This document shows, one piece after another, positions 3,163 through 32,312 of a stretch of DNA of 64,000 nt. Origin of the DNA: Akkermansia muciniphila (GTDB lineage: Bacteria; Verrucomicrobiota; Verrucomicrobiia; Opitutales; Opitutaceae); NCBI GenBank assembly GCA_945888375.1, contig CAMCZZ010000007.1, forward strand, positions 689 through 64,688. The letters are read 5' to 3'. Positions within the stretch are counted from its first letter, which is position 1. Every line of letters starts with the position of its first letter. Position numbers and translations under genes: made by a program. Under the pieces are notes generated by a model, which saw only the letters and a program-made list of their open reading frames with translations, had not been told where the DNA came from and made no database searches.

Positions 3163-6378
<3,216 letters not shown>

Positions 6379-11534: not shown

Positions 11535-12073
11535 GCGGCGGGCGCTGTAGCGGGCGGAGGTTCAGGCGTTGCTACTGCGTTGACTGCGGCTAGCGCTTCA
11601 CGTGAGGAGTAAATCTCGATTGCCCCAGCGCCGTGCCGTCGAGCGCATTTCCTCAATTCACCTCGTTGATTGTTTAAATGGCGCGGGTTGTTCGATGCCA
11701 GATGGCAGCCTTTCGCTGCCGCCACATATACAAATACTTGGTCGGAGCGCTCTCCGCCACGGACGTTACCTGAAATACAGTTTCCTAGCCCATCACCGAG
11801 ATTAACCTCAACTTGCTGACCCGCCTCTAGGGCCCTAGTGAGGATCCATTTAAGGTAGATAAGCTCATTACCAGTTTGATCGCTTCGAGCTATTTCGGGG
11901 CTAAGCTGGTGTTTGTATTCTCCCCAGATGCGCCCACCGGCATCCATACCGATTTCGATTTTGTTACGAGTCCAAGAGGATACCAGGAGGGTTATGTGAC
12001 CATCGCCGTTCCACTCAGGACTCGTGTTAAACATGTGCTTGAGAATATTGGTATCGATTACCCAAGTGTTCAT
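11531..12073 (-). CDS. Hypothetical protein, PIN-like predicted nuclease
   Basis: 180 aa. N-terminal VIDTNIL (Asp7), mid acidic residues (Glu40/Asp44), and SDQVFVYVAAAKGCHLASNN resembling the third and fourth PIN motifs, with Asn in place of the last Asp. ATGA overlaps with both neighbours. GC is lower than in flanking DNA. Confidence 0.45.
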   Translation of the reverse strand: MNTWVIDTNILKHMFNTSPEWNGDGHITLLVSSWTRNKIEIGMDAGGRIWGEYKHQLSPEIARSDQTGNELIYLKWILTRALEAGQQVEVNLGDGLGNCISGNVRGGERSDQVFVYVAAAKGCHLASNNPRHLNNQRGELRKCARRHGAGAIEIYSSREALAAVNAVATPEPPPATAPAA

Positions 12074-13407
12074 GGTGCTTCGGAGCCGAATTCCAATGCC
12101 TCTAAGACTTCAGCCCCGAAAAATTCCATGGGAAGACCCTTATCGAGTGCTCCGTTTGCGTTAATCGAGAGATTGCGAACTACCACCTTGGCGCCGGCCG
12201 CGCCCTCGGGCTGTTCTGTGGTGAAGAACGCGACGCTTACATCCTCGGCCTTGAGTTTTCCCTGAGAGATCAAACGCCGCAGTCGCAGCAGGATGTTCGA
12301 GCTATGGGTCTCGACGATGCTCGGGATGCCGCGTTCCGTCCAAAGATCGGCGAAGAACGACCCAAGAGCCAACTGCGCCGTCGGGTGGATTTGCGCCTCG
12401 GGTTGCTCCACCATGAGCGTTTCGCCCGCCTTCATGAGCGTGCCCTGAACCAAAATCGGCAGTGCTTGGCTAACACCAAAACCGAAATCGGAAAGATATG
12501 AACGGGACTTGGTGTGCTTATTTGTGGCGAGGACTTCGGTCAGCATCTTACGGCCAGAGCGTTTGAAAATCAGCTTGTCGATGTCAGTTACCGCCTCGAT
12601 GTGCTTGGCCAAGAAATCGCGGCGGGCCTTATCTTTGCTCCGGTCGAGTAGTTCGACCATGTGTGGAATTGCGAATTCGCCGCGATGCCCAACCCAGCCT
12701 GGCGGAGGGCTGCCGCTCTGAATCGTATGCTCGGACTCCTCTCGCACCGGGGAAAGGTGACGTAGGCGCAGAATTTCTTTGCGGAGTGGTTCAAGAAACT
12801 GCTCGGCAGTGAAGTTGCGTAGCTGACTCTCGAAACTGCTACCGCCTTGGACGAAATCGAGAAACTTCACCCGCACGAGTTTATCTTCGGTGAGTTCGAA
12901 AATCACCTTGTCGCCCTGTTTGCCCGTAACCGTATGCGTGCCGGTGTTTCGTTTATGTCCGTAACCTACGTTTCCCTTAATAACGAAATCAGTGAGGGGA
13001 TCGACGCCCACTTTGGCTTCGGTCAACGCTGCGGGGAGGTTTATGCGAATTTCCTGCGCGCCCCCAATCGTCTGCACGAAACCTCGTTTATGGCTTTCAG
13101 CCCATAGTTGCTGAATTTGGGTCGGAGGGAGTTCGTCGGTTTGTAGCGAGATTGAGTATCGGAAGTTATTCTTCTTCGTCTGCGAATTTTTTAGCTCTCT
13201 CCACCGGCCCAACATGACGTGGCTGCCCTCGGTAACGAAAAAACGATCCCCCGCCGACTCGATGGTCTGCTGTAGCATGAGCAGGAACTTGAGCAGCGTA
13301 GATTTACCCGCGCTGTTACGCCCAATCAACACCGTGATCGGCGCTAGGCGCACGGTAACAGAATCGTTGTAAGCCCGGAAGTTTTCGAGGGTGATTTCTT
13401 TCAGCAT
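12070..13407 (-). CDS. AAA/ABC-type ATPase of the AAA15/21 + DUF3696 kind
   Basis: Walker A (LIGRNSAGKSTLLK), Walker B (LMVEQPEAQIHP), ETHSSNILLRLRRLI, C-terminal LPMEFFGAE tail typical of DUF3696 proteins. Nested between mod and res. Confidence 0.75.
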   Translation of the reverse strand: MLKEITLENFRAYNDSVTVRLAPITVLIGRNSAGKSTLLKFLLMLQQTIESAGDRFFVTEGSHVMLGRWRELKNSQTKKNNFRYSISLQTDELPPTQIQQLWAESHKRGFVQTIGGAQEIRINLPAALTEAKVGVDPLTDFVIKGNVGYGHKRNTGTHTVTGKQGDKVIFELTEDKLVRVKFLDFVQGGSSFESQLRNFTAEQFLEPLRKEILRLRHLSPVREESEHTIQSGSPPPGWVGHRGEFAIPHMVELLDRSKDKARRDFLAKHIEAVTDIDKLIFKRSGRKMLTEVLATNKHTKSRSYLSDFGFGVSQALPILVQGTLMKAGETLMVEQPEAQIHPTAQLALGSFFADLWTERGIPSIVETHSSNILLRLRRLISQGKLKAEDVSVAFFTTEQPEGAAGAKVVVRNLSINANGALDKGLPMEFFGAEVLEALEFGSEAP

Positions 13408-13417
13408 CGGGCGGGCT

Positions 13418-16405
13418 TTATTCGAGGTTGATGACTTTCAGTGATTCGATGCCTCGGTCGTCGATGACTTTGACCGCGACTCGGCGGTGCTTGCCGGGTT
13501 CGAAGGGCAAGGAGATTGTGCCGCGAAAGGCTTCCAGTTTTTCCTCGTCGAGCTGGGCGCGGAGTTCTTTGGACAAGCGCGACCAGCCTTCTTTTTCGCC
13601 CGCCATCGGGAAAAAGATCTGCTGCGGGAAAACTGCTCGGCCGTCGTAGTCGGGGTCGAGCAGCCACATGGCGATGTTGCCCGCGCCGCCGCTCTCCAGG
13701 TCGCCCGTCTTGGTATTAAAATAGTCGAAGCCGTTGACCTCGACTTCCCACTTGCCCTTGTCGTCGCCGGAACGGATGGGGCGCACCACCACGTCAGGCT
13801 GGCCCATGAGCCAGAAGGATTCGTTGCTGGCGCGGCCTTTTTTGAGGTCTTCGGTCAAGAGGTCGGGGTTCATCTGCGCTTTGAGCAGGGTGACGCCGGG
13901 CCAGTTGGTTTCATCAATGTCCTTGGCGGCCTCGGAATCGAAGGCGAAGGAGGCGAAGACGACGAACTTGGGCTTGGGCACTAGTTTGTTGGCCTCCTCC
14001 AGCGCAAGCGCGACCTGGCGTTGCTCCAACGGGGCGTGTTCGGGGCCGAAGGAGATGGCGGCGGGCTGGCCCTCCACGGTGGAGCCGATGGCGTGGAGGT
14101 AACGCGTGCCGGGCACGGGTTCGAGGTCGGCGAACTGGACTTTCTGGCCGCCCTTGCCGCGGATGCCGGTCTTCACCAATTCGTCGCGCCACTGGTGCTG
14201 GCGCGAGGTGGCGCCGCTGCGGGCGACGGCCGTGGTGGCGTCGGGCGGCTGGTGGGCCTCGTCGAGCGATTGCACGGTGGGGAAGGGCGTGGCCTCGACG
14301 GTGAAGGGGCCGGTGACGCGCACCTTGTTTTTATCTACCTGCGGGCGGTCGTATAGAATCTTGGGATCAGCGTGGGCGGCGATTTTGGCATCCATCTGCG
14401 CCTGCATGGTCTGCCTGGTCTTGTGAAACGCATCAAAGGGTGCACGCGCGGCGGCGGGCCAAGCCTCGGGAAAGGCGAATGGCACGTCCCAATCCTGCAA
14501 CTTGGGCTGCTTGGCGGCGGTCTTAAGCTTTTCGAGCGCGGCGAGGATGGCGGGGTGCAGGCGGGCGTGGATTTCGGCGATCTCGGGATTGTTGGCGATG
14601 GTTTCTAATTTGATGTGCGGAACGGTCTCGTTGATGAAGCCGGAGCGCACGCCCTCGTTGGGGTATTTGAGCGCGTAGTAATCGAAACTCGCGGTCATCA
14701 GCCGTTGCTTGGCCAGCGTGAGCGCGACGCGGGAGGTGTCGCAGGTGATCCAGCGGCGACCCCATTTTTCGGCGACAAAGGCAGTTGTGCCGGAACCGCA
14801 GGTGATGTCCATGACCAGATCGCCTGGATCGGTCACCATCAGTAAACAACGCTGAACGATTTGTTCATTGGTCTGCACGACGTAAACGGGATCACTTGCA
14901 CCGCCTAAGCCGTCCCACCAATTAGTTATAGTCTTAAATGGGAAGTCACTGTGATACCTGACGCCGTCCAGAGCTGAACGTCCCGCAATCAACCGGTTTG
15001 CATACCCTAGACACTCCATCGGCGTTGGTTCGGTGCCCAGCTTTTTACTCCGAAAAGACCAGCATCGGTTTAGCGGTGGAGTAAATGCCTGCCCCCTACA
15101 TTTGACCGCGTCCATTTGATTAGCGCGGATGCCACCATTGGTGATTGGCCACGGACGAAAAATCCGAGCTGTTGGGTAATCGACCTTCAATCGCGCAGGG
15201 CTAAGTCGATAATCAAAGACCTCACCTGAGGGGGTGGTTGCCCGAGTTAAATTGAACCGGTCGCCATTTGGTAATTCGACCATGCTAAATTCGCTTAACG
15301 TTTCGGAGTCCCAAGCTCTCTCTTCGTAGAGATGCTTCATCTTTAACTTTCCACTTTCACGTGGTGAACGCCCATACCAAACGAGGTAGTCGTTTACCGG
15401 GTCGATCATGGTGCTTTTTTGTGAGCCCTTCTTCTTAACGAGAATATCGACGACATGATTCTCCACCCCGAAAATCTCATCCATGAGATTACGGACGAGG
15501 TGAACGTTTTCATCGGAAATCTGGACGAAGACGGAACCGGATTCGCTCAAGAGTTCGCGCGCCAAGAGCAGGCGGTCGCGAAGGTAGGTGAGGTAGGAGT
15601 GGATGCCGAGTTCCCAAGTGTCGCGGAAGGCTTTGATCATCTCCGGTTCCTGGGTGAGGTCGGAGTCGGTGCGGTCTTTGACGTCGCGCTTATTGACGAA
15701 GGGCTGGAAGTTGGAGCCGTATTTGATGCCGTAGGGCGGATCGAAATAAAACATCTGCACCTGCCCGGCCATGCCCTCCTTGCGGAGGAGGGAGTTCATG
15801 ACGAGGAGGGAGTCTCCGGCAACGAGGCGGTTGGCCCAGCCGCGCTCGTGTTTGTAGAAATCGACAGCCTCGCGCAGGGATTCCTGCTTGAAGGCGTGGT
15901 CAAATAAATCGCCCTGCACGGGGCCGGCCTTGGCCTCCTCGGAGCGGAGCGTCTGCACGACGCGGGCGGAGTCGATCTTCTCGTGGACGTGGAGCGAGAC
16001 GGTATCGACCTCGAAGGACGTGCGCTCGGCCTTGCCCGTCCAGGCAAGGAAGGGGGCTTGGAGTTTTTTGAGCTTTTCGGTGGCGCCGACAAGCCGGGCG
16101 CGGGTAGCTCTCATTTCATCCGCCGCCCCGAGGACGGCGAGTTCGCCGAGTCTGGCGCTCTCGGACTGAATATCCGCAATCAGCGTCTCAACCTGCTGGC
16201 GGATGCCCTGCGAATCGAATTTTAGTTCTGGGGCGAGGTGGGGATCGAAGGCCCAAGTGGTCTTGCCCGCCTCGGGATCGGTGTCGGGGGTGACGAGGCC
16301 GACCTCGGGGTTGTTCTTACGTTTGGACGCGTATTCGTAAGCGGCGACTTCCTTGGGTGCAAAATCTGAGGATGTGGGAGCGGGGGATTTCGACTTCTTC
16401 GCCAT
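13418..16405 (-). CDS. mod: Type III-like N6-adenine DNA methyltransferase Mod subunit (beta-class, 995 aa)
   Basis: Motif IV (FYFDPPYGIKYGSNF) precedes motif I (VMDITCGSGTTAFVAEKWGRRWI), with a variable TRD-like block between them. DFYKHERGWANRLVAGDSLLVMNSL is a typical Mod N-terminal region. Confidence 0.85.
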   Translation of the reverse strand: MAKKSKSPAPTSSDFAPKEVAAYEYASKRKNNPEVGLVTPDTDPEAGKTTWAFDPHLAPELKFDSQGIRQQVETLIADIQSESARLGELAVLGAADEMRATRARLVGATEKLKKLQAPFLAWTGKAERTSFEVDTVSLHVHEKIDSARVVQTLRSEEAKAGPVQGDLFDHAFKQESLREAVDFYKHERGWANRLVAGDSLLVMNSLLRKEGMAGQVQMFYFDPPYGIKYGSNFQPFVNKRDVKDRTDSDLTQEPEMIKAFRDTWELGIHSYLTYLRDRLLLARELLSESGSVFVQISDENVHLVRNLMDEIFGVENHVVDILVKKKGSQKSTMIDPVNDYLVWYGRSPRESGKLKMKHLYEERAWDSETLSEFSMVELPNGDRFNLTRATTPSGEVFDYRLSPARLKVDYPTARIFRPWPITNGGIRANQMDAVKCRGQAFTPPLNRCWSFRSKKLGTEPTPMECLGYANRLIAGRSALDGVRYHSDFPFKTITNWWDGLGGASDPVYVVQTNEQIVQRCLLMVTDPGDLVMDITCGSGTTAFVAEKWGRRWITCDTSRVALTLAKQRLMTASFDYYALKYPNEGVRSGFINETVPHIKLETIANNPEIAEIHARLHPAILAALEKLKTAAKQPKLQDWDVPFAFPEAWPAAARAPFDAFHKTRQTMQAQMDAKIAAHADPKILYDRPQVDKNKVRVTGPFTVEATPFPTVQSLDEAHQPPDATTAVARSGATSRQHQWRDELVKTGIRGKGGQKVQFADLEPVPGTRYLHAIGSTVEGQPAAISFGPEHAPLEQRQVALALEEANKLVPKPKFVVFASFAFDSEAAKDIDETNWPGVTLLKAQMNPDLLTEDLKKGRASNESFWLMGQPDVVVRPIRSGDDKGKWEVEVNGFDYFNTKTGDLESGGAGNIAMWLLDPDYDGRAVFPQQIFFPMAGEKEGWSRLSKELRAQLDEEKLEAFRGTISLPFEPGKHRRVAVKVIDDRGIESLKVINLE

Positions 16406-20615: not shown

Positions 20616-21983
20616 TCATCGCGCCCACGCTCCGCGAAAGCGGGTGAGCGCGGGCCGGTGGTGGCCGTTCATGCCGGTCGGCACGCGGGTTGATGCAAAG
20701 GCTCCCCAACCCGCACCGGGGTTGCGCTGGGCGGCATGGATGGCGAGTGCGAGCGCGGTGGAGCGGTCGGCGTGACCGTCGGCGGTGCGAGCGGCGGCGT
20801 AGCGGATGGTGCCGCCGGGGCTGACTATGCGTTGCATGCTGCCGAGGTCGTCACGGATGACGGCGGCGGCGGGCAGCGCGACGGTGCGAGCCTGCATGGA
20901 TTTCTTGAGCCGCTCGAACAGCTCGCGCTTGCGGTCGCCGGTGAAGGTGACGCCCTCCAAGCGGGTTTCGTCGAGCGCGGCGGCGAGGTGTTCGCTCACC
21001 GGGCCACCGATGCCGGTCGCGTCGATGGCGGTGAACGCTGCGGCCATGACGCGCGGGGCGAGGATGGCCTCTTGCTGAGGGAATGGAATGCGGTCGAGAA
21101 CCAGCACCTCGCGGGTGATGAGTGGGCCGCCGGGCAAACGCTCCAACGTCCAGGCGACGGTAAGGTCGCGTTTGCGGCCAACGTCGATGCCGACGAAGAG
21201 CGCGGGACGGATGCGTGACTCGCGCGAAAACAATTCTTCGGGCGCGTCGAGGGTGGCGTCGTCGGACTCGCAGGCGCGGACAAGATCGGCCGGGAACACC
21301 TGAGACGAGTGCTCCATGAACTGACACTCGAACTCCTGCGCCCAACCGTCGGGATCGGCGAGATTAGCCCGGAGTTCCTCGATGTTGAGCGCGAGGCCGC
21401 TCGCGACGGCGTCGTAAACCGTGGTCTTGTGGCGGGAGAAAGCCGGGGCGTGTTCCCAAAGGTCGAAATACTTGTTGTTGCGACCGGCGGGCGTGGAGAT
21501 GACGCGCAGCTTCAACGCACCGCGCAGTGGGTTGGAGATGATCGGATAAACCGCGCGCCAGATTTCCTCGGGGTTCTCGTGAAACGCGAACTCGTCGAGG
21601 ACGAGGTTGGCGGAGTAGCCGCGTGCGGTGGCGGGGTTCGCCGGGAGAGCGAGGACGCGGGCACCGTTGGGAAAACGAAGCTGCGACTTCTGCACCTCGG
21701 GCCGGTATTCTTTTCCGGTGGAGTAGCTGATGGCGTCGCAGAAGATGGACGCGGCACGTTGCACCTTGTCCATGAACTCAAGGGCCTGCCGTTCGCCCGC
21801 GCTGAGAATTACCCAGTCGCCGCCGGTTTCGAGCGCGTCGGCGACGACCTCGAATGACGCCGCGAGCGAGCCGCCGATCTGGCGGGACTTGAGCCAGATT
21901 TTGAAACGGGCGTCGTCTCGAACCCACGCGAGTTGGTAGGGCAAGAGAAGATCGAGGGGCGTGACCTTGAGCTTCTTGCTCAT
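20616..21983 (-). CDS. terL: Terminase large subunit
   Basis: ATG at 21983 overlaps the terS stop (ATGA). 455 aa. ATPase N-terminal region (PYQLAWVRDDARFKIWLKSRQIGGSLA, Walker-A-like), LVLDEFAF Walker B, and a C-terminal RNase-H-like nuclease region. Confidence 0.75.
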   Translation of the reverse strand: MSKKLKVTPLDLLLPYQLAWVRDDARFKIWLKSRQIGGSLAASFEVVADALETGGDWVILSAGERQALEFMDKVQRAASIFCDAISYSTGKEYRPEVQKSQLRFPNGARVLALPANPATARGYSANLVLDEFAFHENPEEIWRAVYPIISNPLRGALKLRVISTPAGRNNKYFDLWEHAPAFSRHKTTVYDAVASGLALNIEELRANLADPDGWAQEFECQFMEHSSQVFPADLVRACESDDATLDAPEELFSRESRIRPALFVGIDVGRKRDLTVAWTLERLPGGPLITREVLVLDRIPFPQQEAILAPRVMAAAFTAIDATGIGGPVSEHLAAALDETRLEGVTFTGDRKRELFERLKKSMQARTVALPAAAVIRDDLGSMQRIVSPGGTIRYAAARTADGHADRSTALALAIHAAQRNPGAGWGAFASTRVPTGMNGHHRPALTRFRGAWAR

Positions 21984-22501
21984 GGTGACGCTTCCTTGGC
22001 CGGGGGCGCGGGCTCGACGGCACCGAGGCGTGAGCGCCAATCGCGCATGATGTCTTTTTCGCGGTCGGCGGTGATGTTGACTTGGGTGGCGACAACCGTG
22101 GCCGGTTTGTCGGAATAGACCTCCGGCTTATGGGCCTTCAGAAAGAAGATGAGACAGGCGTCGGAGTAGCGGCGGCGTTCTCCGCACAGCTGGCCCTTCG
22201 CGTCGAAAACCGGCTCCGTCCAACCGTCGATGCCACGGCGTTTCAACTCTTGTTCGGCATCCTCGATGCGAGACGCGTTCCGCACGCGGTCGCGTTCGAG
22301 CTGGGCGGATTGGAGCACCGGCACAAGATCGGGCTGGCGCTGCAAGTGGCGGTAGAACGTGGAATGGTCGATACCCTGCTTCTCGATTGCGGTCGCAGTC
22401 GGTGCGCCGTCGCGGATGTCGGCCACGACTCGCTCGAACAAGGCCGTGCTGAACTTGGACAGCCGTCCGGGTTTGTCGGACTTGGGAACCGTGATGGGCA
22501 T
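21980..22501 (-). CDS. terS: Terminase small subunit-like DNA-binding protein
   Basis: 173 aa with an N-terminal HTH-like segment and the RRYSDACLIFFLKAHKPEVY motif common in small terminases. Immediately upstream of and coupled to terL. Confidence 0.55.
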   Translation of the reverse strand: MPITVPKSDKPGRLSKFSTALFERVVADIRDGAPTATAIEKQGIDHSTFYRHLQRQPDLVPVLQSAQLERDRVRNASRIEDAEQELKRRGIDGWTEPVFDAKGQLCGERRRYSDACLIFFLKAHKPEVYSDKPATVVATQVNITADREKDIMRDWRSRLGAVEPAPPAKEASP

Positions 22502-24099
22502 TCCCGGCGCGGGGTGTCAATCGGTGCGCGCGGGCGAATTTGGCGACGGTCTAAAACGCGCGTGAACAGTTGGGGTTGCAGTGGCGGGCGTCAGCCCGCC
22601 GCAACGAGTGGGCGGCTTCCGCCGCCGCCGAGGCGCAGGAGGGCCGACGCGCGGCTCGGCGCGCCCGGCCCGACGGAGGCGGAGCCCGTCGCCCGCTGGT
22701 TCGGCGCGAAGCGCGCGGGCGACCGGGCGGAGCAGCGCGCCAGAGGCGCGCAAGCCCGCCGCCGGCCAGCGAAGCTAGGCCGGGCGGGACGGGCGGGGCC
22801 ACCGCCCTGCTTGGGTGGCGGGGGGAAGCTCCCCAGTGAACGAGCGAAGCGAGAGAACGATGGGGGCGCGTGGCGACGGCAGAACAGACGATGGCTTGCG
22901 AGCGAGGTGGCAGCGGGGACAAGGCACCGCCAACGGACGGCCAGGGCGGGCGCGGGGGAACCTATCATTGCGCGAAGCGCCGCTAGAATCTTCGTCGAAG
23001 GGCGGCGAAGCCGCGGTGACCTTGATTCGCGCGCCGCAGACTGGAGAGGCCCGAAGCTCGCCGCCGGCCCGAGCGCACTACTCCACCTTATGTCGAAAAT
23101 GCCTCCGGCGGGTGCCCTGACAGGGTGCCGGACATGCTCCGAAGGAGGGCATCTTCGGTATAAGGTAAGTAGTGCGCGGAGGGGAAAGCAGGTCGCATGA
23201 CGGCAGAGCGGGACGAGAAGGGTTCACCGACATGACTCGGACGATGGACGCGGGACACGACGCAGCCCGAGCGCGGGGGGCTGCCGCAGTGCCAGCGCCT
23301 TCGCCGTGAGGGAGGAGAACCCGGATCGCCTGCTATGCGGGCGGGCGACCTGCCCGGTGGCGAGCGGAGGGCTTTCCGCTTATTGGCGCGCGTTCGCGTT
23401 GGGTCGTGAGTGAGCTTTGCGAACGAACCGCACACCTTGTTCGAGGGGCGTTGTTCCGCCCCGAGCATCAAAGCCCCCGGCGCATGAGGCGGAACCGAGC
23501 GAGCTTTGCGAGCGGGGGCCGGAGTCGTTGTGGCCCGGCGAGTCTGCGGCGCTCGGTGAGCACCCGCCTTGGCGGGCGCGGAATCGAGTGACGCTGTCTC
23601 GACGCGCTGGAATTGGTTTGGGGCGGGAGACGTTGTGAGCCGGACAGTCGAGCAGTCGGTGACGGTCGGGCGACTGGAATGAAGCGGAGGGCGGACGTGG
23701 AGCCGAAGGTGCGACGGCGACGCCGGGTCGGGGATCAGCCGCGACGACCGCAGCCCCGTTCGCGAAGCGAGACGGCGCGGTTCTCGGCTCGACGAGATCC
23801 GTGACGGCAGGGGCGAAGGGCGTTGCGGCCCCCGACTGGGCGGAGTCGGCGCACCGTAGGCGGAACGGTAGCGCGGAGCGGAATGGAGGGAGGCCGAGCG
23901 GCACCGTCTGCGGGCGAATTGTCGAGGACGTGGCGACGGAGCGCGTTAGCGGCGTTCGCCAAGGGAGCGGAGCGACCGCAGGCGTTGAGGGTAGCGACCA
24001 ACGGGAGCGGGCGAAGGAGGACGGCGAGGCGTGTTGTTGGGGGGAGTGGCGAAGACGCGGGAGCGATACGCCAAGCGAACGGAGTGAGCGCAGGCGTTG
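22502..24099. other. 1.6 kb ORF-free, purine-skewed, hairpin-rich region: candidate large ncRNA, pac/cos region, or regulatory region of the island
   Basis: All six frames give only Arg/Pro/Ala/Gly-rich nonsense ORFs that overlap each other. One hand-counted line had 28 G vs 13 C on the plus strand. Short motifs recur (GAGCTTTGCGA x2, GCAGGCGTTG x2, GCGAAGCG-type) and there are many GC hairpins. Confidence 0.4.
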
Positions 24100-24618
24100 T
24101 CAGGCGGCGAGGTCGTCGTGGAGCTTCTTGAACCAAGCGAGTTCGTTGCGGAGGAGACGGCGGGCTTGAGGCGACCATTTCGACAAGGGCTCTTCCTCGA
24201 TGCGTTGATGGAACCAGCGGCGGAATTGGTCGAGGCCACGAACGTAGTTTACGGTCGGGGTGTTGGCGTCGGGTTCGCGACGTTGACGGGGCGAATCCGG
24301 CAATACCCCCGTGGCCATGTAGGCTTGGCGGAGACCGGCGGCGTCATCGAGCACGGTGTCGGGCGCGTGCTTGGCGAGCTTCATGTAGCGGCGGGCGGTC
24401 GGGGCGGAGATGGCGGGACAATGGGCGGCCAGCCAGTCCTGCCAGGTGCCATGTGGGAGGGCATCCTTTTGGAGATTGAGGAGGCGACCACATTCGAGGG
24501 CGCGGGCGACGGCTTGGCGGGCGTTAAGGGTGGCAGCGGCGGCGGTAGCGCTGACCTCGGAAAAGGCGGCGTTGATCTCGGGGGCGAGATTGAGGGAGAG
24601 GGCGGAATCAGTGGACAT
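24100..24618 (-). CDS. DUF3102-like phage/plasmid protein
   Basis: 172 aa. CGRLLNLQKDALPHGTWQDWLAAHCPAISAPTARRYMKLAKH matches the characteristic DUF3102 core. Confidence 0.55.
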   Translation of the reverse strand: MSTDSALSLNLAPEINAAFSEVSATAAAATLNARQAVARALECGRLLNLQKDALPHGTWQDWLAAHCPAISAPTARRYMKLAKHAPDTVLDDAAGLRQAYMATGVLPDSPRQRREPDANTPTVNYVRGLDQFRRWFHQRIEEEPLSKWSPQARRLLRNELAWFKKLHDDLAA

Positions 24619-25387
24619 GATGGGCGGTGGATTTGAGTTTTGAGAGGTGGTTTAGGCGGGACTTGCGATAGGACTGGCGGGCGCGTTTTGAACGCATCCC
24701 CCGTGAGGGAGGGAGGGCGAAGGTCTGCGACCACTGAACGACGAGGCGGGAAAACGCGGCTCGGGTGACGCCGTGGCGCTTGGCGAGGGCGGTCTCGCTC
24801 AAGCCCTCGATGTCCATGAGGCCCGAGGCGAAACATGCGGCGTCGAAGGCGAGGAGCGGATTGGGGTGGGCTCGGATGCGGGCACAGAACGAGGCGAGGA
24901 TGTCACCGGCCGCGAGGTAGCCCCCCGGTGTTGGGGAGGAGTCGGCGGCGGGAGTGGGAGTGGCGGAGGTGACGGACTGGGCGGCTTGCTTCGCGGCGAA
25001 GGCGCGTTCGTCGTCCTCCTCTACCTGGTCGTCGGGCTGTATGTCCGGCGACTCGGTCAACTCCATGACCGTCTCGTCGTCGTGCTGGGAGGTGTGGCGC
25101 TTGGTGTCGGGCTCGCCGAGACCTTGGGCGGCGAGGCGGGCGCGTTCATCAGGCGGGAGGGTGGCGAGCCAATCGCGGTAGGCGGTGGCGTATTCGGCAT
25201 CCCGTGCGTCCTGAAGATCGGCGGCGGAGAGCTGTTTTGCTCGTAACGATGAGACATGACTTTTCTTTGAGCCCCCAACCCCGACCCTCCGGCCCCTACA
25301 TATAGGGGCCTCGGGGTTCGGGGTAAGGTTAGGGGCGGAACCCCGAATCGGGGTCGAATCGGGGTTAGCTCGGGGTTCGGGGTTCAT
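24608..25387 (-). CDS. Hypothetical protein with C-terminal HTH (sigma-70 region 4-like). The 5' part overlaps the iteron cluster.
   Basis: ATG at 25387 overlaps the helicase stop (ATGA). No other canonical start occurs in frame until Met108. C-terminal LSETALAKRHGVTRAAFSRLVVQW is HTH-like. The start remains uncertain. Confidence 0.45.
   Translation of the reverse strand: MNPEPRANPDSTPIRGSAPNLTPNPEAPICRGRRVGVGGSKKSHVSSLRAKQLSAADLQDARDAEYATAYRDWLATLPPDERARLAAQGLGEPDTKRHTSQHDDETVMELTESPDIQPDDQVEEDDERAFAAKQAAQSVTSATPTPAADSSPTPGGYLAAGDILASFCARIRAHPNPLLAFDAACFASGLMDIEGLSETALAKRHGVTRAAFSRLVVQWSQTFALPPSRGMRSKRARQSYRKSRLNHLSKLKSTAHHVH
25277..25383. repeat. Iteron cluster plus AT-centred palindrome: candidate replication origin of the island
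   Basis: TCGGGGT occurs 6 times in direct orientation (25311, 25318, 25348, 25359, 25370, 25377) and twice inverted (ACCCCGA at 25278 and 25340). The palindrome GGCCCCTA-CATA-TAGGGGCC is at 25291..25310. The cluster lies immediately 3' of the helicase gene. Confidence 0.5.
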
Positions 25388-26475
25388 TGGCCGCCTCCTT
25401 TCACGTAAAGGCCTTTTCCGGCCCAGCGGATGACCCCCAGGCGTTTCATGTCCTTGATCCGTTTTTCTATCGTGCTGGGAACCCCGCCTCGTGCGGATTT
25501 GATGGCCTCCCCAAGTTCCTTCCATCGAAGTTCTGTGCGATTGGCGAAAACCTCATCGGCAATCTCGATCAACTCGGCCCGTCGTTTGTCGTCGGCGGAG
25601 GCAGCCTTGGACTCGGTGCTCAGGAACATTTCCTCCTCGTGGTTCCATTTGAACCGAGGAGCTTTTTCGGCGGTGATTTCCTGCCGCCGCGCGGGTTTGC
25701 AGAGGATCGTGATGATGTCCTCCTCCTTGCGGAGGTTGAAAACGGACTCGGCCTTGCGCTCGATCTGGCTACCCAAGTGACCGCGTGATTTCTCGGAGCC
25801 GGGGTTGAGGTGGAGGGCGACGATGATGACGCAACGGGTCTCGGTCGCGAGTTTGTGGAGCGTGTCCACAGTGGCCGTGGCCTCCTCAAGCGAGTTAACG
25901 TCGAGAGCTAGGTCGGCGACACCATCAATGAAGATTGCAGAGAGGCCACCCGGCTCGGCGGCGGCTTTGCGGGCCATGTGACAAACCGCAATCAAACGGT
26001 CGGCGGGGGATTCTAGCAAAAGGGAGTAGCTGGCGAAACGAGACGGTGCTTGCTCCAGTCCGGCGCGGCGGAGCACGGAAGACATCAAGCGGAAGTGGTC
26101 GCCACGAGATTGCTCAGTGTCGAAAACCAGAATGCTCCCCGTGACCGCAGGATTAGCGGTGAAGCCGAGGTAGTCGCGGGAGGCGTCGCCGATAAGCCCA
26201 CCCATCATTGCCGCCATCGTGGAGGACTTGCCGGATTTGAGGGCTGCGACCACGACGGCGAGGTTACCGGCGTGGAGGCACTCGATGTCGGCTAGCTTGT
26301 AAATCCAAGGCTCTACGGGAGGCGGATTATTGGGGTCGAAACGGGTAGATTCGATTCGAGCAATCAGCTGCTCCTTGAAAGTTTTTTCCTTATCGGCATC
26401 CGTGAACGCGGAACGACGTTCGTCTATGGCGGACGGGGAAGACGGTTTGGGAGAATAGGGTTTCGCAGGCATCAC
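25384..26475 (-). CDS. RecA-fold replicative helicase / AAA_25-type ATPase with C-terminal winged-helix
   Basis: Walker A (AALKSGKSSTMAAMM), Walker B-like (AIFIDGVADL), VIIVALHLNPG. Coupled (ATGA) to the upstream primase gene, a pairing typical of primase-helicase modules in satellites and integrative elements. Confidence 0.65.
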   Translation of the reverse strand: MMPAKPYSPKPSSPSAIDERRSAFTDADKEKTFKEQLIARIESTRFDPNNPPPVEPWIYKLADIECLHAGNLAVVVAALKSGKSSTMAAMMGGLIGDASRDYLGFTANPAVTGSILVFDTEQSRGDHFRLMSSVLRRAGLEQAPSRFASYSLLLESPADRLIAVCHMARKAAAEPGGLSAIFIDGVADLALDVNSLEEATATVDTLHKLATETRCVIIVALHLNPGSEKSRGHLGSQIERKAESVFNLRKEEDIITILCKPARRQEITAEKAPRFKWNHEEEMFLSTESKAASADDKRRAELIEIADEVFANRTELRWKELGEAIKSARGGVPSTIEKRIKDMKRLGVIRWAGKGLYVKGGGQ

Positions 26476-27506
26476 GAGTTTTCCTTGGATAGGCCCTCGA
26501 ACACATCGGCTGGGCAGTTGAGGGATTCCCCGTCAGTGGCGGCGAGGAGGTCGGCGAGATCCTTGATGGGTGCGTCGAAGGTGAAGCCGTCCACGGTGGC
26601 CCCGGCCTCCATGAGTTGAGCCGCCCAACGCTGGCCGGCATCGGAACCGGCGGCGTCGGCGTGCTCGAAGATTCTGACGTGCTTACCGGCGAAAAGCGGT
26701 AGGGCGTCGGGATGAATTGAAGCGGTGGCACCGGGGACGCAGACGACCGCAACCGTGGCGGCGCGTTTGGCGAGCCAAGCGAGGGTGTGGGCGGCAAGGA
26801 AATCAGGAGAACCCTCGCAAAAGAGAACGAGACGGCGGTCGCCGATGTCGGCTGCACCGATGGGCCAACCGGCGATGCTTCCCCCCAGCGTCCAGGCCTT
26901 GGCCTTGTTCCACGCCCACGGCTGGCCGTCCATGCGACGGACTTGGATAGAGCGACGGGCTGAATCGGTGATCGCCCAGGCCGGACGGGAAACCCCGTCG
27001 TCGGTCATGGTGCAACGGTGGAGTAGGCCACGCTGAGTGGCGATTTCGAGCCCGGCAAAAACCGGCCAACCTCGCACGCGCTGAATCTCCGCCAGGTCGC
27101 CGACCGTGGGAACGGTGAAGGCAGGGATGCGGAGAGGCTTTTTGGGCTGGGTGGGACGCGGAGCGGTCGGCGAAGGGGCGAGCGCGGCGATGCGGATCAG
27201 CTCGCGGGCAGCGTCGGCGGCGGAGCAGCCGAGAAGCCGCATGATGACGCCGATGGAGTCGAATGACTCCCCGGTCGCGAAGTCATGCGCGACCATGCCA
27301 TCGGGTCGGATAGAGAAGGAGGGCTTCTTGTCCTCTCTGAACGGGGATGAGATTAGCTGTCGGTCGGTCGCATCGAGAAGCCCGTAGGCTCTCAAGATGA
27401 CGAAGATCGTGGTGGTGGCTTTGGCCCGTTCGAGGGCGGAGGGAGGTGAAGAGGAGGAGGGCTGACGCATTTCTGGCTCAGGCATCTCCATCCCGCGACT
27501 CGGCAC
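26472..27506 (-). CDS. DNA primase (Toprim-domain, phage/plasmid type)
   Basis: The N-terminal segment ISSPFREDKKPSFSIRPDG is typical of primase zinc-binding-like regions. A Toprim-like acidic block is present (LVLFCEGSPDFLAAH ... VRIFEHADAAG). The start could be a few codons downstream. Confidence 0.6.
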   Translation of the reverse strand: MPSRGMEMPEPEMRQPSSSSPPSALERAKATTTIFVILRAYGLLDATDRQLISSPFREDKKPSFSIRPDGMVAHDFATGESFDSIGVIMRLLGCSAADAARELIRIAALAPSPTAPRPTQPKKPLRIPAFTVPTVGDLAEIQRVRGWPVFAGLEIATQRGLLHRCTMTDDGVSRPAWAITDSARRSIQVRRMDGQPWAWNKAKAWTLGGSIAGWPIGAADIGDRRLVLFCEGSPDFLAAHTLAWLAKRAATVAVVCVPGATASIHPDALPLFAGKHVRIFEHADAAGSDAGQRWAAQLMEAGATVDGFTFDAPIKDLADLLAATDGESLNCPADVFEGLSKENS

Positions 27507-27541: not shown

Positions 27542-29728
27542 TCAGGCGCTACTTCCCGCGTAGCGGGGAGCTACTTTTGGCGTAGCGGCTGGATGTGCGG
27601 CGACCAAGGAAGGCGGATCGAAGGCCCAAGAAACATACGGCTCGGGGTCGTAACAATTCTCAACGCCGAGGCGTAGTAGCTTCCGGTTGGCCAAGTGGTT
27701 CGCGAGTGCTTCGTCGTGCTCCCGAATCTCGTCGATAGTTCGGTCGATATTGTTTCGGAGCGCGTCACGCTCCCGCTTTCGAAGATCCTGAAGTTTTCGG
27801 CTTTTGCCGTCGGGGCCTACGTCTTTCCGCACGCGGCGTAATACGTCATCCATCACTTCTTCAATCCGTGCGGCTTCCTCCGGGTTGTTGAACTCTTTCG
27901 CATCACTTAGCAGGTCTCGGAGCTTGCTGAGCTCGTTTCGGTAACTCGCGATTGCGGTCTCATCCACCGCAGCGCCTCCGTCGGCCATCGGTAAACCGTG
28001 GGTCATGGCAAAACCGCTGGTGATCAATTCCTGCTCTGAAATCTGCCCGTCCAAGGCCATGTCGCACGCATCCACGGCGACGGCCGACCGCACCTCTGAA
28101 ACGGATAGAATCTCGCTCTGGGAGCGGAGTATCCGGTGGAGGTAGGCGCAGCCCTTTTCGTGGTGCTGAATAGGGAACGATTTCCCGTTGCTGAAACGAA
28201 TCTCCCAGACGTTGCCGCGACGCCACATGTAGTTTGCGGGCAAGTCTGGAGTTGTTGCCAATGCGTCGGGCGCCTGTGCGGTCATTCGGGTGTCGGTTAC
28301 GATCCGGATGAGGCAGTCGCCGGGTAAGCGCCGGTGGACCACATCAAGGGCATGTTTCTTTACCAGCGATTCAAGTGCCCGCTCAATGTCGCGGCCGTGT
28401 CGTTTATGCAGGTCGAGAAAGCGCTGTGCAGCCTGATCGGGTGACTGGTTGGGAATATACGCGACCGCGCGACCCATTTGGGGGAAGCTAGCCAGCAACT
28501 CATTCTGGGAGGTTATCATGCTCAAGGTGCGAGCACGCTCGATGTAGCCGGCGGTGAGGATGCGGTCGGCGTCTCGGCTCGGGGCTTGGGTGAATATGTC
28601 GAACTTGTAGTGCGAGGCGGGATCGAGGTCCTCGGCACCGATCGCGAACATGGCGAGCCGCCGGTCCAGACACTGCGAGCAGAGCCCGCAATGGGTGTGT
28701 TCGTTCGTGCGCTCCCAAGTATGAGCACAACTGACGGAGCGAGCGATGAGTGGCCCTTTGCCGGCATCAACGATGCGCCTGACAACATCCGCCTTCGTGT
28801 GCCAGAGGTAGGGGTTTTCGACCGTGAAAGTGGCTTCGCTTAGCAACGAGAAGAGTTTTGAAAAGCCGGCGAGAACGCGGGGATGGGTAGTCCGTGTTGC
28901 CCGGCCGCCAACGACCTGGGCGCACAACGGGAGATTCAGGCTGATAACGCCGTTTTCGTAGAAACGCAGCGATTGAAGCCCGACCAGCTTGGCCACCGCC
29001 GCGCCTAGACAGGCGAAGAGGAAGGAGCGGGTTCGTTGGGTGTATTCCTTCCCGAGCGACTTCGCTTTGTTGACCTCCATGCCGACGTGGAGCGGCGGTG
29101 CGGAGGGTCCGGCAAGCTTTGCCAAGTCCTCGCGCAGCCTGCGAATAATACCGATGTTTTTGCTCGTGGGGATGTGGGTGACGAACGCCACGTGGTTTCG
29201 CTCCCGTTCGATCTCGTCGATGGCACCGGCCAAGGAATCTAGACCTCCGGAAAACATCGCGACTTGATTGAAGGGCGCGCCAGTTATTGCCGGAGCCTCA
29301 AGGCCAAGGTATTGCTGTAGCGGCACGGGCTTCTTGGCCGGGTAAAAGTGGAACGTGAAAAAGTGGTCACCCAAAAAGCCCAAGAGATCCGAGAGAGTTG
29401 CTGTGACTTCGGGCCGTTTCCAGAAGTCAGGGCACCGGACCGGAAGGTGAAAGCGTAGTGATTGACGCCACTGCGCACCGAAAGTATCGGTATCCTGGCA
29501 AGAGCGTCGGACGGCTTGATCGGCGGCGTAAACGTAGGCGGCTATTTCGATGAGGTCATGGTAGACCGGGGGCAGTGAGCACGAGACGGATTGAGGCAGG
29601 GCCTCGATGCGGAGGTTCACTTTTTCCTCGGGCGGGCCGTGGAGCAAATGCAAGCGAATGGCATCATCCTCGTTCGTCTTGGCCGGTGCGGTCAGCCCGC
29701 CGCATAGGATGACGTTGTTAGTTCGCAT
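27542..29728 (-). CDS. Large QueC-like PP-loop ATPase (QatC/Cap9-like core) with unassigned N- and C-terminal extensions
   Basis: ATG at 29728 (MRTNNVILCGG). PP-loop SGGLDS within MFSGGLDSLAGAIDE. QueC-type Cys cluster HTHCGLCSQCLDRRL. 728 aa, against ~230 aa for housekeeping QueC. Overlaps the upstream gene by 11 nt. Confidence 0.65.
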   Translation of the reverse strand: MRTNNVILCGGLTAPAKTNEDDAIRLHLLHGPPEEKVNLRIEALPQSVSCSLPPVYHDLIEIAAYVYAADQAVRRSCQDTDTFGAQWRQSLRFHLPVRCPDFWKRPEVTATLSDLLGFLGDHFFTFHFYPAKKPVPLQQYLGLEAPAITGAPFNQVAMFSGGLDSLAGAIDEIERERNHVAFVTHIPTSKNIGIIRRLREDLAKLAGPSAPPLHVGMEVNKAKSLGKEYTQRTRSFLFACLGAAVAKLVGLQSLRFYENGVISLNLPLCAQVVGGRATRTTHPRVLAGFSKLFSLLSEATFTVENPYLWHTKADVVRRIVDAGKGPLIARSVSCAHTWERTNEHTHCGLCSQCLDRRLAMFAIGAEDLDPASHYKFDIFTQAPSRDADRILTAGYIERARTLSMITSQNELLASFPQMGRAVAYIPNQSPDQAAQRFLDLHKRHGRDIERALESLVKKHALDVVHRRLPGDCLIRIVTDTRMTAQAPDALATTPDLPANYMWRRGNVWEIRFSNGKSFPIQHHEKGCAYLHRILRSQSEILSVSEVRSAVAVDACDMALDGQISEQELITSGFAMTHGLPMADGGAAVDETAIASYRNELSKLRDLLSDAKEFNNPEEAARIEEVMDDVLRRVRKDVGPDGKSRKLQDLRKRERDALRNNIDRTIDEIREHDEALANHLANRKLLRLGVENCYDPEPYVSWAFDPPSLVAAHPAATPKVAPRYAGSSA

Positions 29729-30506
29729 CGGCCTCCGCTCTGACTCGCATTTCGGAGCGAATCTTTTCCATCGCATACCATCCAAACCGGGTAGAAGTCT
29801 GTCGGGTGATGTCGCCGCCTCCGGTGAAGCGGTTTTTGGAGAACCATTCGCCGCAGAAGCGTTCGACTATCACACTGGCCTCGCTGGTGTGTTTCGCCAT
29901 CGCCTCCTGAAAATCGGCCACTTGGGCGGTCGTGGCGAAGCGATGGCCGGCGCCAACCCTCGAGTGAAGGGTCTTTGATAAAAAGTATTCGAGGCAACTG
30001 CGGGAAACGCCTTCGAAGAAGGTTCTGGCCACTCCTGAAAACTCGGAGGGCCTGCCAAGCTTCGCGAGAGCGCCATGAACATCCGCAGCGGTGGGGGTAA
30101 AAAGAGGGCCAAGACCGTTTTCCAGGTGGCGAGTTATCGCGCCGACCAATGCATTTTGAGCGACTTCACCGAAATCGGTCTGACTGCCGCGCGCTTGGGT
30201 CTTGGCGTCCAATGTGCGATGAATTGCGCTGGCGACCTCCGCGATGGAGCTTCGCTCCGAAAGGGAAAAACCATGCTTGGCGAGGTGCGCCGATGGATCG
30301 GGTTTCTTGGCGGAAACCGCCAGTTGGGTCAAAAGGGCTGCCGCCTCGGCAAACCCGGGATCCTTTTGGATGCACTCGAAGGCCTTGTCCGCCGCCTGCC
30401 AGGTTGCCTCCGCGACTTGGCCAACGTCGGCACCATCGGCGAGCAGTTCGACGACAGCGCGCCAAGGTCTGGTGGATGGAAGGATACCAAGTCGAACGTG
30501 CCCCAT
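29718..30506 (-). CDS. Hypothetical protein, partner of the QueC-like gene (no recognisable motif)
   Basis: 262 aa from the ATG at 30506, or 267 aa from the TTG at 30521. Translationally coupled to the QueC-like gene. Preceded by an AT-richer 80-nt region. Confidence 0.5.
   Translation of the reverse strand: MGHVRLGILPSTRPWRAVVELLADGADVGQVAEATWQAADKAFECIQKDPGFAEAAALLTQLAVSAKKPDPSAHLAKHGFSLSERSSIAEVASAIHRTLDAKTQARGSQTDFGEVAQNALVGAITRHLENGLGPLFTPTAADVHGALAKLGRPSEFSGVARTFFEGVSRSCLEYFLSKTLHSRVGAGHRFATTAQVADFQEAMAKHTSEASVIVERFCGEWFSKNRFTGGGDITRQTSTRFGWYAMEKIRSEMRVRAEADAN

Positions 30507-32222: not shown

Positions 32223-32312
<90 letters not shown>

Follow-up and report, generated by a model that had tools for sequence, protein, structure and literature searches.

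A putative 1.5 kb structured noncoding RNA beside the packaging genes of a phage-like island in Opitutaceae

In a 64,000-nt stretch of an assembly deposited as Akkermansia muciniphila and placed by GTDB in the Opitutaceae (GCA_945888375.1, contig CAMCZZ010000007.1, forward-strand positions 689 to 64,688; hereafter the window, numbered from its first nucleotide), a phage-like island carries a 1.6 kb gap between protein-coding genes at 22502-24099. Our analysis suggests that positions 22580-24099 within this gap represent a ~1.5 kb, four-domain noncoding RNA (ncRNA) gene on the plus strand, antisense to every neighbouring gene, and we put the probability of this reading at roughly 0.65. The element is noncoding, selected, base-paired and strand-asymmetric. 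From these comparisons we infer its transcription as one RNA, the ends of that RNA and its function. A preliminary description of the window, made from the sequence alone, had listed a large structured ncRNA in a prophage-like element among several possibilities, and this suggestion is supported by conservation, by covarying nested helices and by the absence of a coding signature.

The gap extends from the ATG of the small terminase (TerS) gene (21980-22501, minus strand) to the stop codon of a DUF3102 gene (24100-24618, minus strand). As first described, it is a noncoding interval with minus-strand genes on both sides that separates the replication from the packaging module, and both its position and its lack of a credible ORF were confirmed: to one side are primase and helicase, to the other the genes for the large terminase (TerL), the portal, a protease and the major capsid protein. 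The spread of GC content among codon phases is 0.00-0.17 in the gap versus 0.3-0.4 in the flanking genes, and the gap forms the longest low-periodicity stretch of the window (1.65-1.8 kb, with at most 615 nt elsewhere). Mechanical open reading frames (ORFs) occur in every one of the six frames, as had been reported. Signs of protein coding (codon-phase composition, an excess of third-position substitutions and indels in threes) were nonetheless absent from the gap and its homologues: variable alignment columns are spread over the three phases without three-base periodicity (316/324/327), and 83% of internal indels are not multiples of three (75/300/66 by length modulo 3).

The composition of the gap is also distinctive. 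The plus strand is 59.4% purine versus ~54% in the flanks (G 677, C 454, A 272, T 195; GC 70.8%), in agreement with the purine richness first noted, and the 60-nt line then counted by hand, at 23640, indeed holds exactly 28 G and 13 C. The excess of G over C (skew 0.197) is common to the whole island (0.14-0.19), while the features specific to the gap are an excess of A over T (+0.165, versus -0.03 to -0.07 elsewhere) and a higher GC content. Two recurring motifs were confirmed, one pair at 23408-23425 and 23497-23514 and a 31-nt pair at 23957-23987 and 24069-24099. The heptamer GCGAAGC occurs six times in the gap, always on the plus strand, out of 28 matches on both strands of the window, and the C(GNA)G triloop hairpins that it forms number 8 versus 2.9 +/- 1.6 in shuffles.

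To follow the element beyond the window, relatives were recovered by searches with the TerS protein and with conserved DNA words, and clustering at 98.5% left 30 non-redundant copies. These derive from Opitutaceae genomes and metagenome-assembled genomes (Rariglobus; IMCC26134, which carries two), as well as from metagenome contigs and from viral contigs, some of them in IMG/VR. A 17-mer scan of genome contigs gave mostly chance matches in unrelated phyla and six real loci, and blastn in its distant mode against 50,697 phage records returned no match to the element. Homologous elements are 78-95% identical to that of the window, whereas identity at four-fold sites in the neighbouring TerS and TerL genes is 37-75%, which excludes a decayed gene or a neutral spacer and shows that the gap region is under purifying selection. 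In homologous loci with flanks, the order DUF3102, element, TerS is kept, with the exception of a single metagenome locus (L149).

A second, more divergent and independent set, which we call group 2, was found via TerL (64-67% identical; TerS 51-59%). In these loci, 1.4-2.5 kb without codon periodicity lies directly upstream of TerS, and the elements are 52-73% identical among themselves. With nhmmer, group 2 gives weak collinear matches to domains IV and I (best E = 2e-7, in L177). A covariance model of the domain I core (R1, 22733-22884) matches seven group 2 loci (L177, L179, L181, L182, L183, L186 and L190) at the equivalent place and on the equivalent strand, antisense to the neighbours. 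In relatives with TerL at 44-47% identity, a comparable gap is not present.

For the overall fold, RNAalifold was run on the full alignment with pairs predicted separately for each strand, giving 443 pairs on the minus strand and 484 on the plus strand, 269 of them in common. Within these 269 pairs, Watson-Crick combinations fill 90% of cells, and compensation from one Watson-Crick pair to another is seen in 83. In the global fold of the plus strand, 146 of the 484 pairs covary and helices span up to 415 nt, resolving into four domains with long-range closing helices and then a variable tail. An all-against-all search for short helices was too noisy at this high GC content and was restricted to longer, wobble-poor helices. 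The predicted features are as follows.

22580-23004, plus strand: domain I, sequence-conserved core with long invariant blocks; 56 pairs, 13 compensatory (RNAalifold, 24 sequences)
22584-22601, plus strand: domain I hairpin, loop GUCA
22600-22635, 22638-22674, 22684-22728, 22735-22751 and 22754-22794, plus strand: further domain I hairpins
22791-22807, plus strand: domain I hairpin, loop GGCCA
22819-22836, plus strand: domain I hairpin, GGGGGG-AAGCU-CCCC
Within domain I: several C(GAA)G triloop hairpins
~22938-22958, plus strand: domain I run of G-tracts, GGGCGGGCGCGGGGG, which is GGGCGGGGGCGGGG in most relatives
23005-23420, plus strand: domain II, closing helices 23005-23037/23386-23420 and 23049-23067/23354-23372
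23073-23106/23144-23177, plus strand: domain II arm 1, a long stem containing A and U
23188-23231/23311-23353, plus strand: domain II arm 2, inner hairpin 23236-23269/23280-23308
23438-23650, plus strand: domain III, hairpins 23438-23467 (loop UUGUU), 23474-23517 and 23605-23650
23536-23604, plus strand: domain III hairpin, apical helix 23560-23579, loop CUUG
23652-23911, plus strand: domain IV, a rod of ~260 nt, closing helix 23652-23675/23888-23911
23708-23733/23830-23855, 23738-23749/23818-23829, 23753-23757/23810-23814 and 23771-23786/23793-23808, plus strand: nested helices of domain IV
Within domain IV: invariant, purine-rich internal loops, GGAAUGGAGCGGAG / GGAGCGGAAUGGAGGGAGG
23912-24099, plus strand: variable 3' tail with a 31-nt direct repeat in two copies, abutting the stop codon of the convergent DUF3102 gene

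The nested long-range helices covary across homologues, most clearly in domains II and IV. In the domain II alignment (A3, 22 sequences), 23 of 47 pairs are compensatory and 96.5% of cells are paired, versus 84.2% in shuffles, with a covariation score of 0.353 versus 0.137; the observed values exceed those of all 500 column shuffles, and controls in which the 3' partners of the helices were slid along give 31-46%. Its long stem keeps the same pairing in three sequence versions: GCGCACUAC/GUAGUGCGC, GCGUAUAA/UUAUACGC and GCACAAU/AUUGUGC. In the domain IV alignment (A1, 19 sequences), 23 of 68 pairs are compensatory and 97.1% of cells are paired, again with 0 of 500 column shuffles reaching the observed values and with slid controls at 33-49%. 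Minimum free energy (MFE), expressed as z-scores relative to dinucleotide shuffles for which coding controls lie at ~0, bears out the earlier characterisation of the gap as highly structured for domain II (z -7.3 on the plus strand) and domain IV (z -6.6).

The other domains contribute at the level of single hairpins. The compensatory series that was first noticed, CCCGCC/GGCGGG, CCCGCU/AGCGGG and CCCGGC/GCCGGG, lies in domain III, where the helix 23536-23557/23583-23604 has 10 compensatory pairs out of 19 and its apical helix 3 out of 7. Domain I shows less covariation because its sequence is more conserved. All four hairpins singled out in the preliminary description are present where it placed them, and compensatory changes occur in those at 22584-22601 and 22791-22807 and in the stem at 23445-23462, while the region 23474-23517 pairs with little covariation. 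The run of G-tracts in domain I is kept in both the close and the distant groups and could fold into a G-quadruplex, either as RNA or as displaced DNA. The tail folds weakly (z -1.1); several homologues have one copy of the 31-nt repeat and lack the intervening 112 nt, and since the loss or gain involves an exact 112-nt unit, repeat-mediated deletion or duplication is suggested.

The strand of the RNA was examined with pairs predicted on both strands, a restriction by which the fold algorithm cannot bias the test. In the close group, written in minus-strand letters, 57 pairs vary only to A.C and 22 only to G.T, versus a mutational expectation from unpaired columns of ~1.2:1; A.C in these letters is G.U when read on the plus strand. 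The same wobble test in group 2 gives 20 versus 4. Domain IV has a z-score of -6.6 on the plus strand versus -0.9 on the minus strand, and a consensus energy of -103.1 versus -71.5 kcal/mol. Unpaired columns are 74% purine as read on the plus strand, and purine-rich unpaired positions are usual for structured RNAs. Taken together, the wobble asymmetry in two sets, the energetics of domain IV and the unpaired purines place the RNA on the plus strand, antisense to all neighbours; given that there is an RNA at all, we regard this assignment as quite probable from the alignments. The purine richness would then belong to the transcript itself.

We propose that such an RNA would act as a folded molecule through its three-dimensional shape, with helices free to vary in sequence provided that pairing persists. 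The invariance of the purine-rich internal loops and of some hairpin loops makes them likely contact surfaces, for which the partners might be a protein, another RNA or further copies of the same RNA. Invariant purine-rich loops set on covarying helices argue for an RNA acting by shape and against both antisense regulation and a DNA site bound by protein. Nine loci have the helicase, with an identity of 53-61% in every one of them, versus 62-95% for the element (rho -0.12), which suggests that the replication module has been exchanged without the element. A slot fixed beside TerS, TerL and portal despite swapped replication genes favours a function during the late or packaging phase of island transfer, a view that we hold only loosely.

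Several observations weigh against a plus-strand RNA with such a role. The stability of domains I and III and of the tail does not exceed that of shuffles (z about -1), and for them the description as highly structured does not stand. Our covariation counts ignore phylogeny, and the close homologues form a narrow clade. The R1 matches in group 2 are individually marginal (E 0.02-0.4). Identity of the element correlates with that of the portal only as a trend (rho 0.55, p 0.06), and correlations with TerL and TerS are not significant. A scan of both strands of 21900-24700, which covered sigma-70 consensus promoters and intrinsic terminators and not the promoter types of the phylum or the island, gave nothing usable, the sole site being terminator-like and inside TerS. 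Finally, single-stranded DNA of plus polarity would yield the same pairing and the same G.T pattern. The d(GCGAAGC) mini-hairpin, which is very stable in DNA, prompted this last reading; it is conceivable, though without supporting biology here.

The conserved helices might instead serve a cis-acting spacer within a minus-strand mRNA, either as the 3' untranslated region of the early operon or as the leader of the terminase/late operon. Such a spacer would insulate the late genes, for example through C-rich Rho loading sites between stems, until an island factor permits read-through. All neighbouring genes lie on the minus strand, so that read-through of the gap is expected, and domain II is very stable on that strand too (z -6.4). 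Rho prefers C- and U-rich, G-poor RNA, and the unpaired minus-strand columns have this composition (C 235, T 179, A 98, G 43). In two independent sets (57:22 and 20:4), the wobble asymmetry nevertheless points to the plus strand. On the minus strand, domain IV stands out in neither z-score nor consensus energy, and helices supported by covariation are interrupted there by A.C. The unpaired stretches are moreover the most conserved, though Rho sites need no invariant sequence, and we consider the spacer improbable.

An RNA-primed replication origin seems to us about equally doubtful. Here, a structured G-rich pre-primer would stay hybridised to the C-rich template and, once processed, prime DNA synthesis. 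The element adjoins the module of primase and helicase, and no protein was recognised as an initiator; origins of this type need no cognate initiator, which softens the argument from co-inheritance. The plus-strand transcript would be G-rich, with a skew of up to 0.27-0.31 near its 3' end, and the conserved run of G-tracts is common with group 2. There is also precedent in the prophages of cluster A mycobacteriophages, whose RNA-based origins involve an ncRNA transcribed against its neighbours (PMC7157519). Like these origins and ColE1 RNA II, the element would be a structured ncRNA running against neighbouring genes beside replication or maintenance genes. Those RNAs, however, measure a few hundred nt, whereas an element of 1.5 kb with four conserved domains is far above known pre-primer size and does not travel with the replication module, which was swapped while the element stayed. 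In addition, GC skew does not switch at the element, and the run of G-tracts is ~380 nt away from the 5' end proposed here instead of at a 3' end.

A DNA-level explanation would make the whole gap a pac/cos region with the late promoter, bound by terminase and regulators and without any RNA role. Cos and pac sites usually lie directly upstream of TerS, as the gap does, and a single-copy, palindrome-bearing 12-mer in its TerS-proximal block is kept even in distant relatives. The relevant features lie outside the folded core.

22502-22579, no strand assigned: TerS-proximal conserved block
22556-22563: palindrome ACGCGCGT, inside the 12-mer ACGCGCGTTTTA (22552-22563, minus strand)
22520-22515, minus strand: TTGACA, 13 nt before the ATG of TerS, conserved in the close group

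A single copy of the 12-mer ACGCGCGTTTTW is found in the window, and each of 39 loci from the two groups likewise has one, in every case upstream of TerS. An insertion in L008 parts the block from TerS and an insertion in L001 parts it from domain I; we therefore treat 22502-22579 as a separate module and as a candidate control region, for instance one with promoters or a packaging site. Within the gap, this block with its single-copy 12-mer is the only part with the look of a discrete DNA site. The pac/cos and late-promoter option raised in the preliminary description may thus apply at most to these ~80 nt. For the rest of the gap it is very unlikely: protein-binding DNA needs neither nested complementarity over 100-415 nt nor strand-specific tolerance of wobble pairs, known packaging regions extend over a few hundred bp at most, and the 12-mer block is separable from the remainder by insertions.

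The two insertions (~250-270 nt each; L001 ~5690-5935 and L008 ~5730-5990) lie on either side of the 12-mer block. That of L001 is rich in inverted repeats, e.g., GTGAACCACGTTG...CAACGTGGTTCAC, with the look of a miniature inverted-repeat transposable element, while that of L008 seemingly holds a small ORF on the opposite strand. Were the TTGACA hexamer to serve as a -35 element, the transcript would begin within the annotated TerS ORF, which puts either the annotated TerS start or the meaning of the hexamer in doubt. Hand inspection of the block for sigma-70, sigma-54, extracytoplasmic function (ECF) and Bacteroidetes-type promoters was unconvincing.

The weakest alternative, a decayed or frameshifted protein-coding gene, draws on the long mechanical ORFs in all frames (e.g., 22082-23200, plus strand, 372 aa) and can be dismissed given the flat codon-phase GC, the even distribution of substitutions, the prevalence of indels that break a frame and a conservation well above neutral sites, unlike that of a pseudogene.

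The putative RNA matches no described family that we could find. With Rfam 15 at gathering scores, only a tRNA at 32228-32312 passes in the window; in 22300-24300 with E up to 10, the only match is a chance-level one of 28 nt to CRISPR-DR29 (E 8.1), and a scan of ten homologous loci gave none. The families covered include GOLLD, ROOL, OLE, HEARO, raiA, group I and II introns, RNase P, tmRNA, 6S and rRNA, so that the element is not a member of GOLLD or ROOL, the examples of large ornate RNAs mentioned at the outset. Full-text literature searches found no description of the element. A group II intron, considered on account of GUGCG at 22524-22528, was rejected as there is no domain V match.

In kind, the predicted RNA is like GOLLD and ROOL. 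Among bacterial RNAs, large ornate ones are, to our knowledge, rare, and their functions are a long-standing question; we know of no explanation for why phages carry GOLLD and ROOL, both of which have recently been shown to build RNA-only cages. They are encoded in phages and prophages, and GOLLD, at >800 nt, is expressed more highly during phage-induced lysis (PMC12286853). Judged from the predicted fold, the element would belong to the same kind, being longer than 500 nt, noncoding, folded into multiple domains with covariation support and situated on a phage-like carrier, and it shares with them a very large size, invariant loops and an obscure role. It differs in that it fails both covariance models, is about twice as long as GOLLD and comes from Verrucomicrobia (Opitutaceae). 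GOLLD and ROOL moreover often lie by tRNA islands, whereas the element is antisense in a fixed slot between the early operon and the small terminase. With regard to cages, the palindromic GGCC loop of the element (22797-22801) could hint at oligomers, but it is not kept in the distant group, which has GGCAA or GGCA; a kissing loop as a sign of oligomerisation was dropped.

Other comparisons concern position. The pRNA of phi29 is a phage-encoded structured RNA of a DNA-packaging motor, of ~120-170 nt, found in phages with protein-primed replication and no small terminase; the likeness is one of position only, as the element is fixed beside terminase and portal genes. A survey of phages in IMG/VR, the same data source as used here, reports structured RNA motifs upstream of terminase genes with an average length of 67 nt, and the part of its text drawn on here contains no 1.5 kb multi-domain RNA (PMC10690425). 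Individual hairpins of the element may figure in that catalogue.

If the ncRNA reading is true, the question of what ornate RNAs do would gain a third phage-associated example, unrelated to the other two and larger still, and kilobase-scale structured RNAs would exist outside the well-sampled phyla as well. With its fixed slot by packaging genes, a small gene set and the cultured IMCC26134 with two copies, the system would be tractable, and the element marks a capsid-encoding, tail-less island family in Verrucomicrobia. One could go further and suppose that a single ~1.5 kb RNA, made late in a tail-less, capsid-forming satellite, is an architectural or motor component, RNA-only or as a ribonucleoprotein, in capsid assembly or packaging. 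We offer this as a speculation with a small chance of being right. If true, it would be the largest structured non-ribosomal RNA so far in a bacterial mobile element and a far larger counterpart of packaging RNA or of the GOLLD/ROOL cages.

The host island is ~23.6 kb long (window 8700-32312) and integrated in an Opitutaceae-like bacterium, bordered by RND efflux, TPMT and NicO genes on the left and by tRNA-Ser and nuo genes on the right. Its layout is as follows.

32225-32312: tRNA-Ser, at the island edge, 8 kb from the gap and the only tRNA in the window
Minus-strand order, first part: integrase, QueC-like protein, primase (26472-27506), AAA_25 helicase (25384-26475)
Minus-strand order, next: 305-aa protein without assigned function, DUF3102, gap
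24100-24618, minus strand: DUF3102 gene (Pfam PF11300), convergent with the proposed RNA
21980-22501, minus strand: small terminase (PHROG 4044, E = 9e-17)
Minus-strand order, after the gap: TerS, TerL, Mu-type portal fused to a Mu F domain, protease, scaffold, major capsid
Island end: 995-aa DNA methylase, AAA_15 ATPase, ResIII helicase

A comparison of the tRNA-Ser end with the left border of the island revealed no att direct repeat of at least 12 nt. Tail and lysis genes were not found in the island, so that it resembles a tail-less, capsid-forming satellite rather than a full prophage, and its relatives look like a family of such phage satellites in Opitutaceae, judging from gene content. 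The two copies of IMCC26134, near 2.79 Mb and 3.20 Mb of its genome (CP011265), appear in IMG/VR as contigs of just 22.3 and 22.8 kb. The cargo past the capsid gene (8748-16405) is defence-like and consists of the 995-aa N6/N4 DNA methylase, a 445-aa AAA_15 ATPase, a 180-aa ORF and a 928-aa ResIII helicase, the C-terminus of which weakly matches endonuclease and head-closure families.

Among the relatives, strikingly many metagenomic and viral contigs begin or end inside the element at varied positions (e.g., L012, L013, L015, L024, L025, L026, L151, L154, L160 and L161). These are likely assembly breaks at a conserved segment within mosaic flanks, or the result of poor coverage of GC-rich structured DNA, while real genome ends are conceivable. 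The exceptional metagenome locus L149 (1-4791) begins within domain I and continues not with TerS but with a type I restriction R subunit (ResIII and EcoEI_R_C domains); an FRG-domain gene is also on the contig. In group 2, L178-L184 have 1.1-3.5 kb between TerL and portal, genes that are adjacent in the window.

DUF3102 is present in all loci with that flank and falls into two sequence types (96-99% or 68-69% amino acid identity) that do not track the element. In some relatives, an Nmad3 (nucleotide modification associated) gene lies between DUF3102 and the element, e.g., at 3609-4481 of L004, and the junction appears to be a hotspot for cargo insertion. At 27542-29785, the window encodes a 747-aa protein with a QueC-like domain, which together with the Nmad3 gene gives a hint of DNA base modification.

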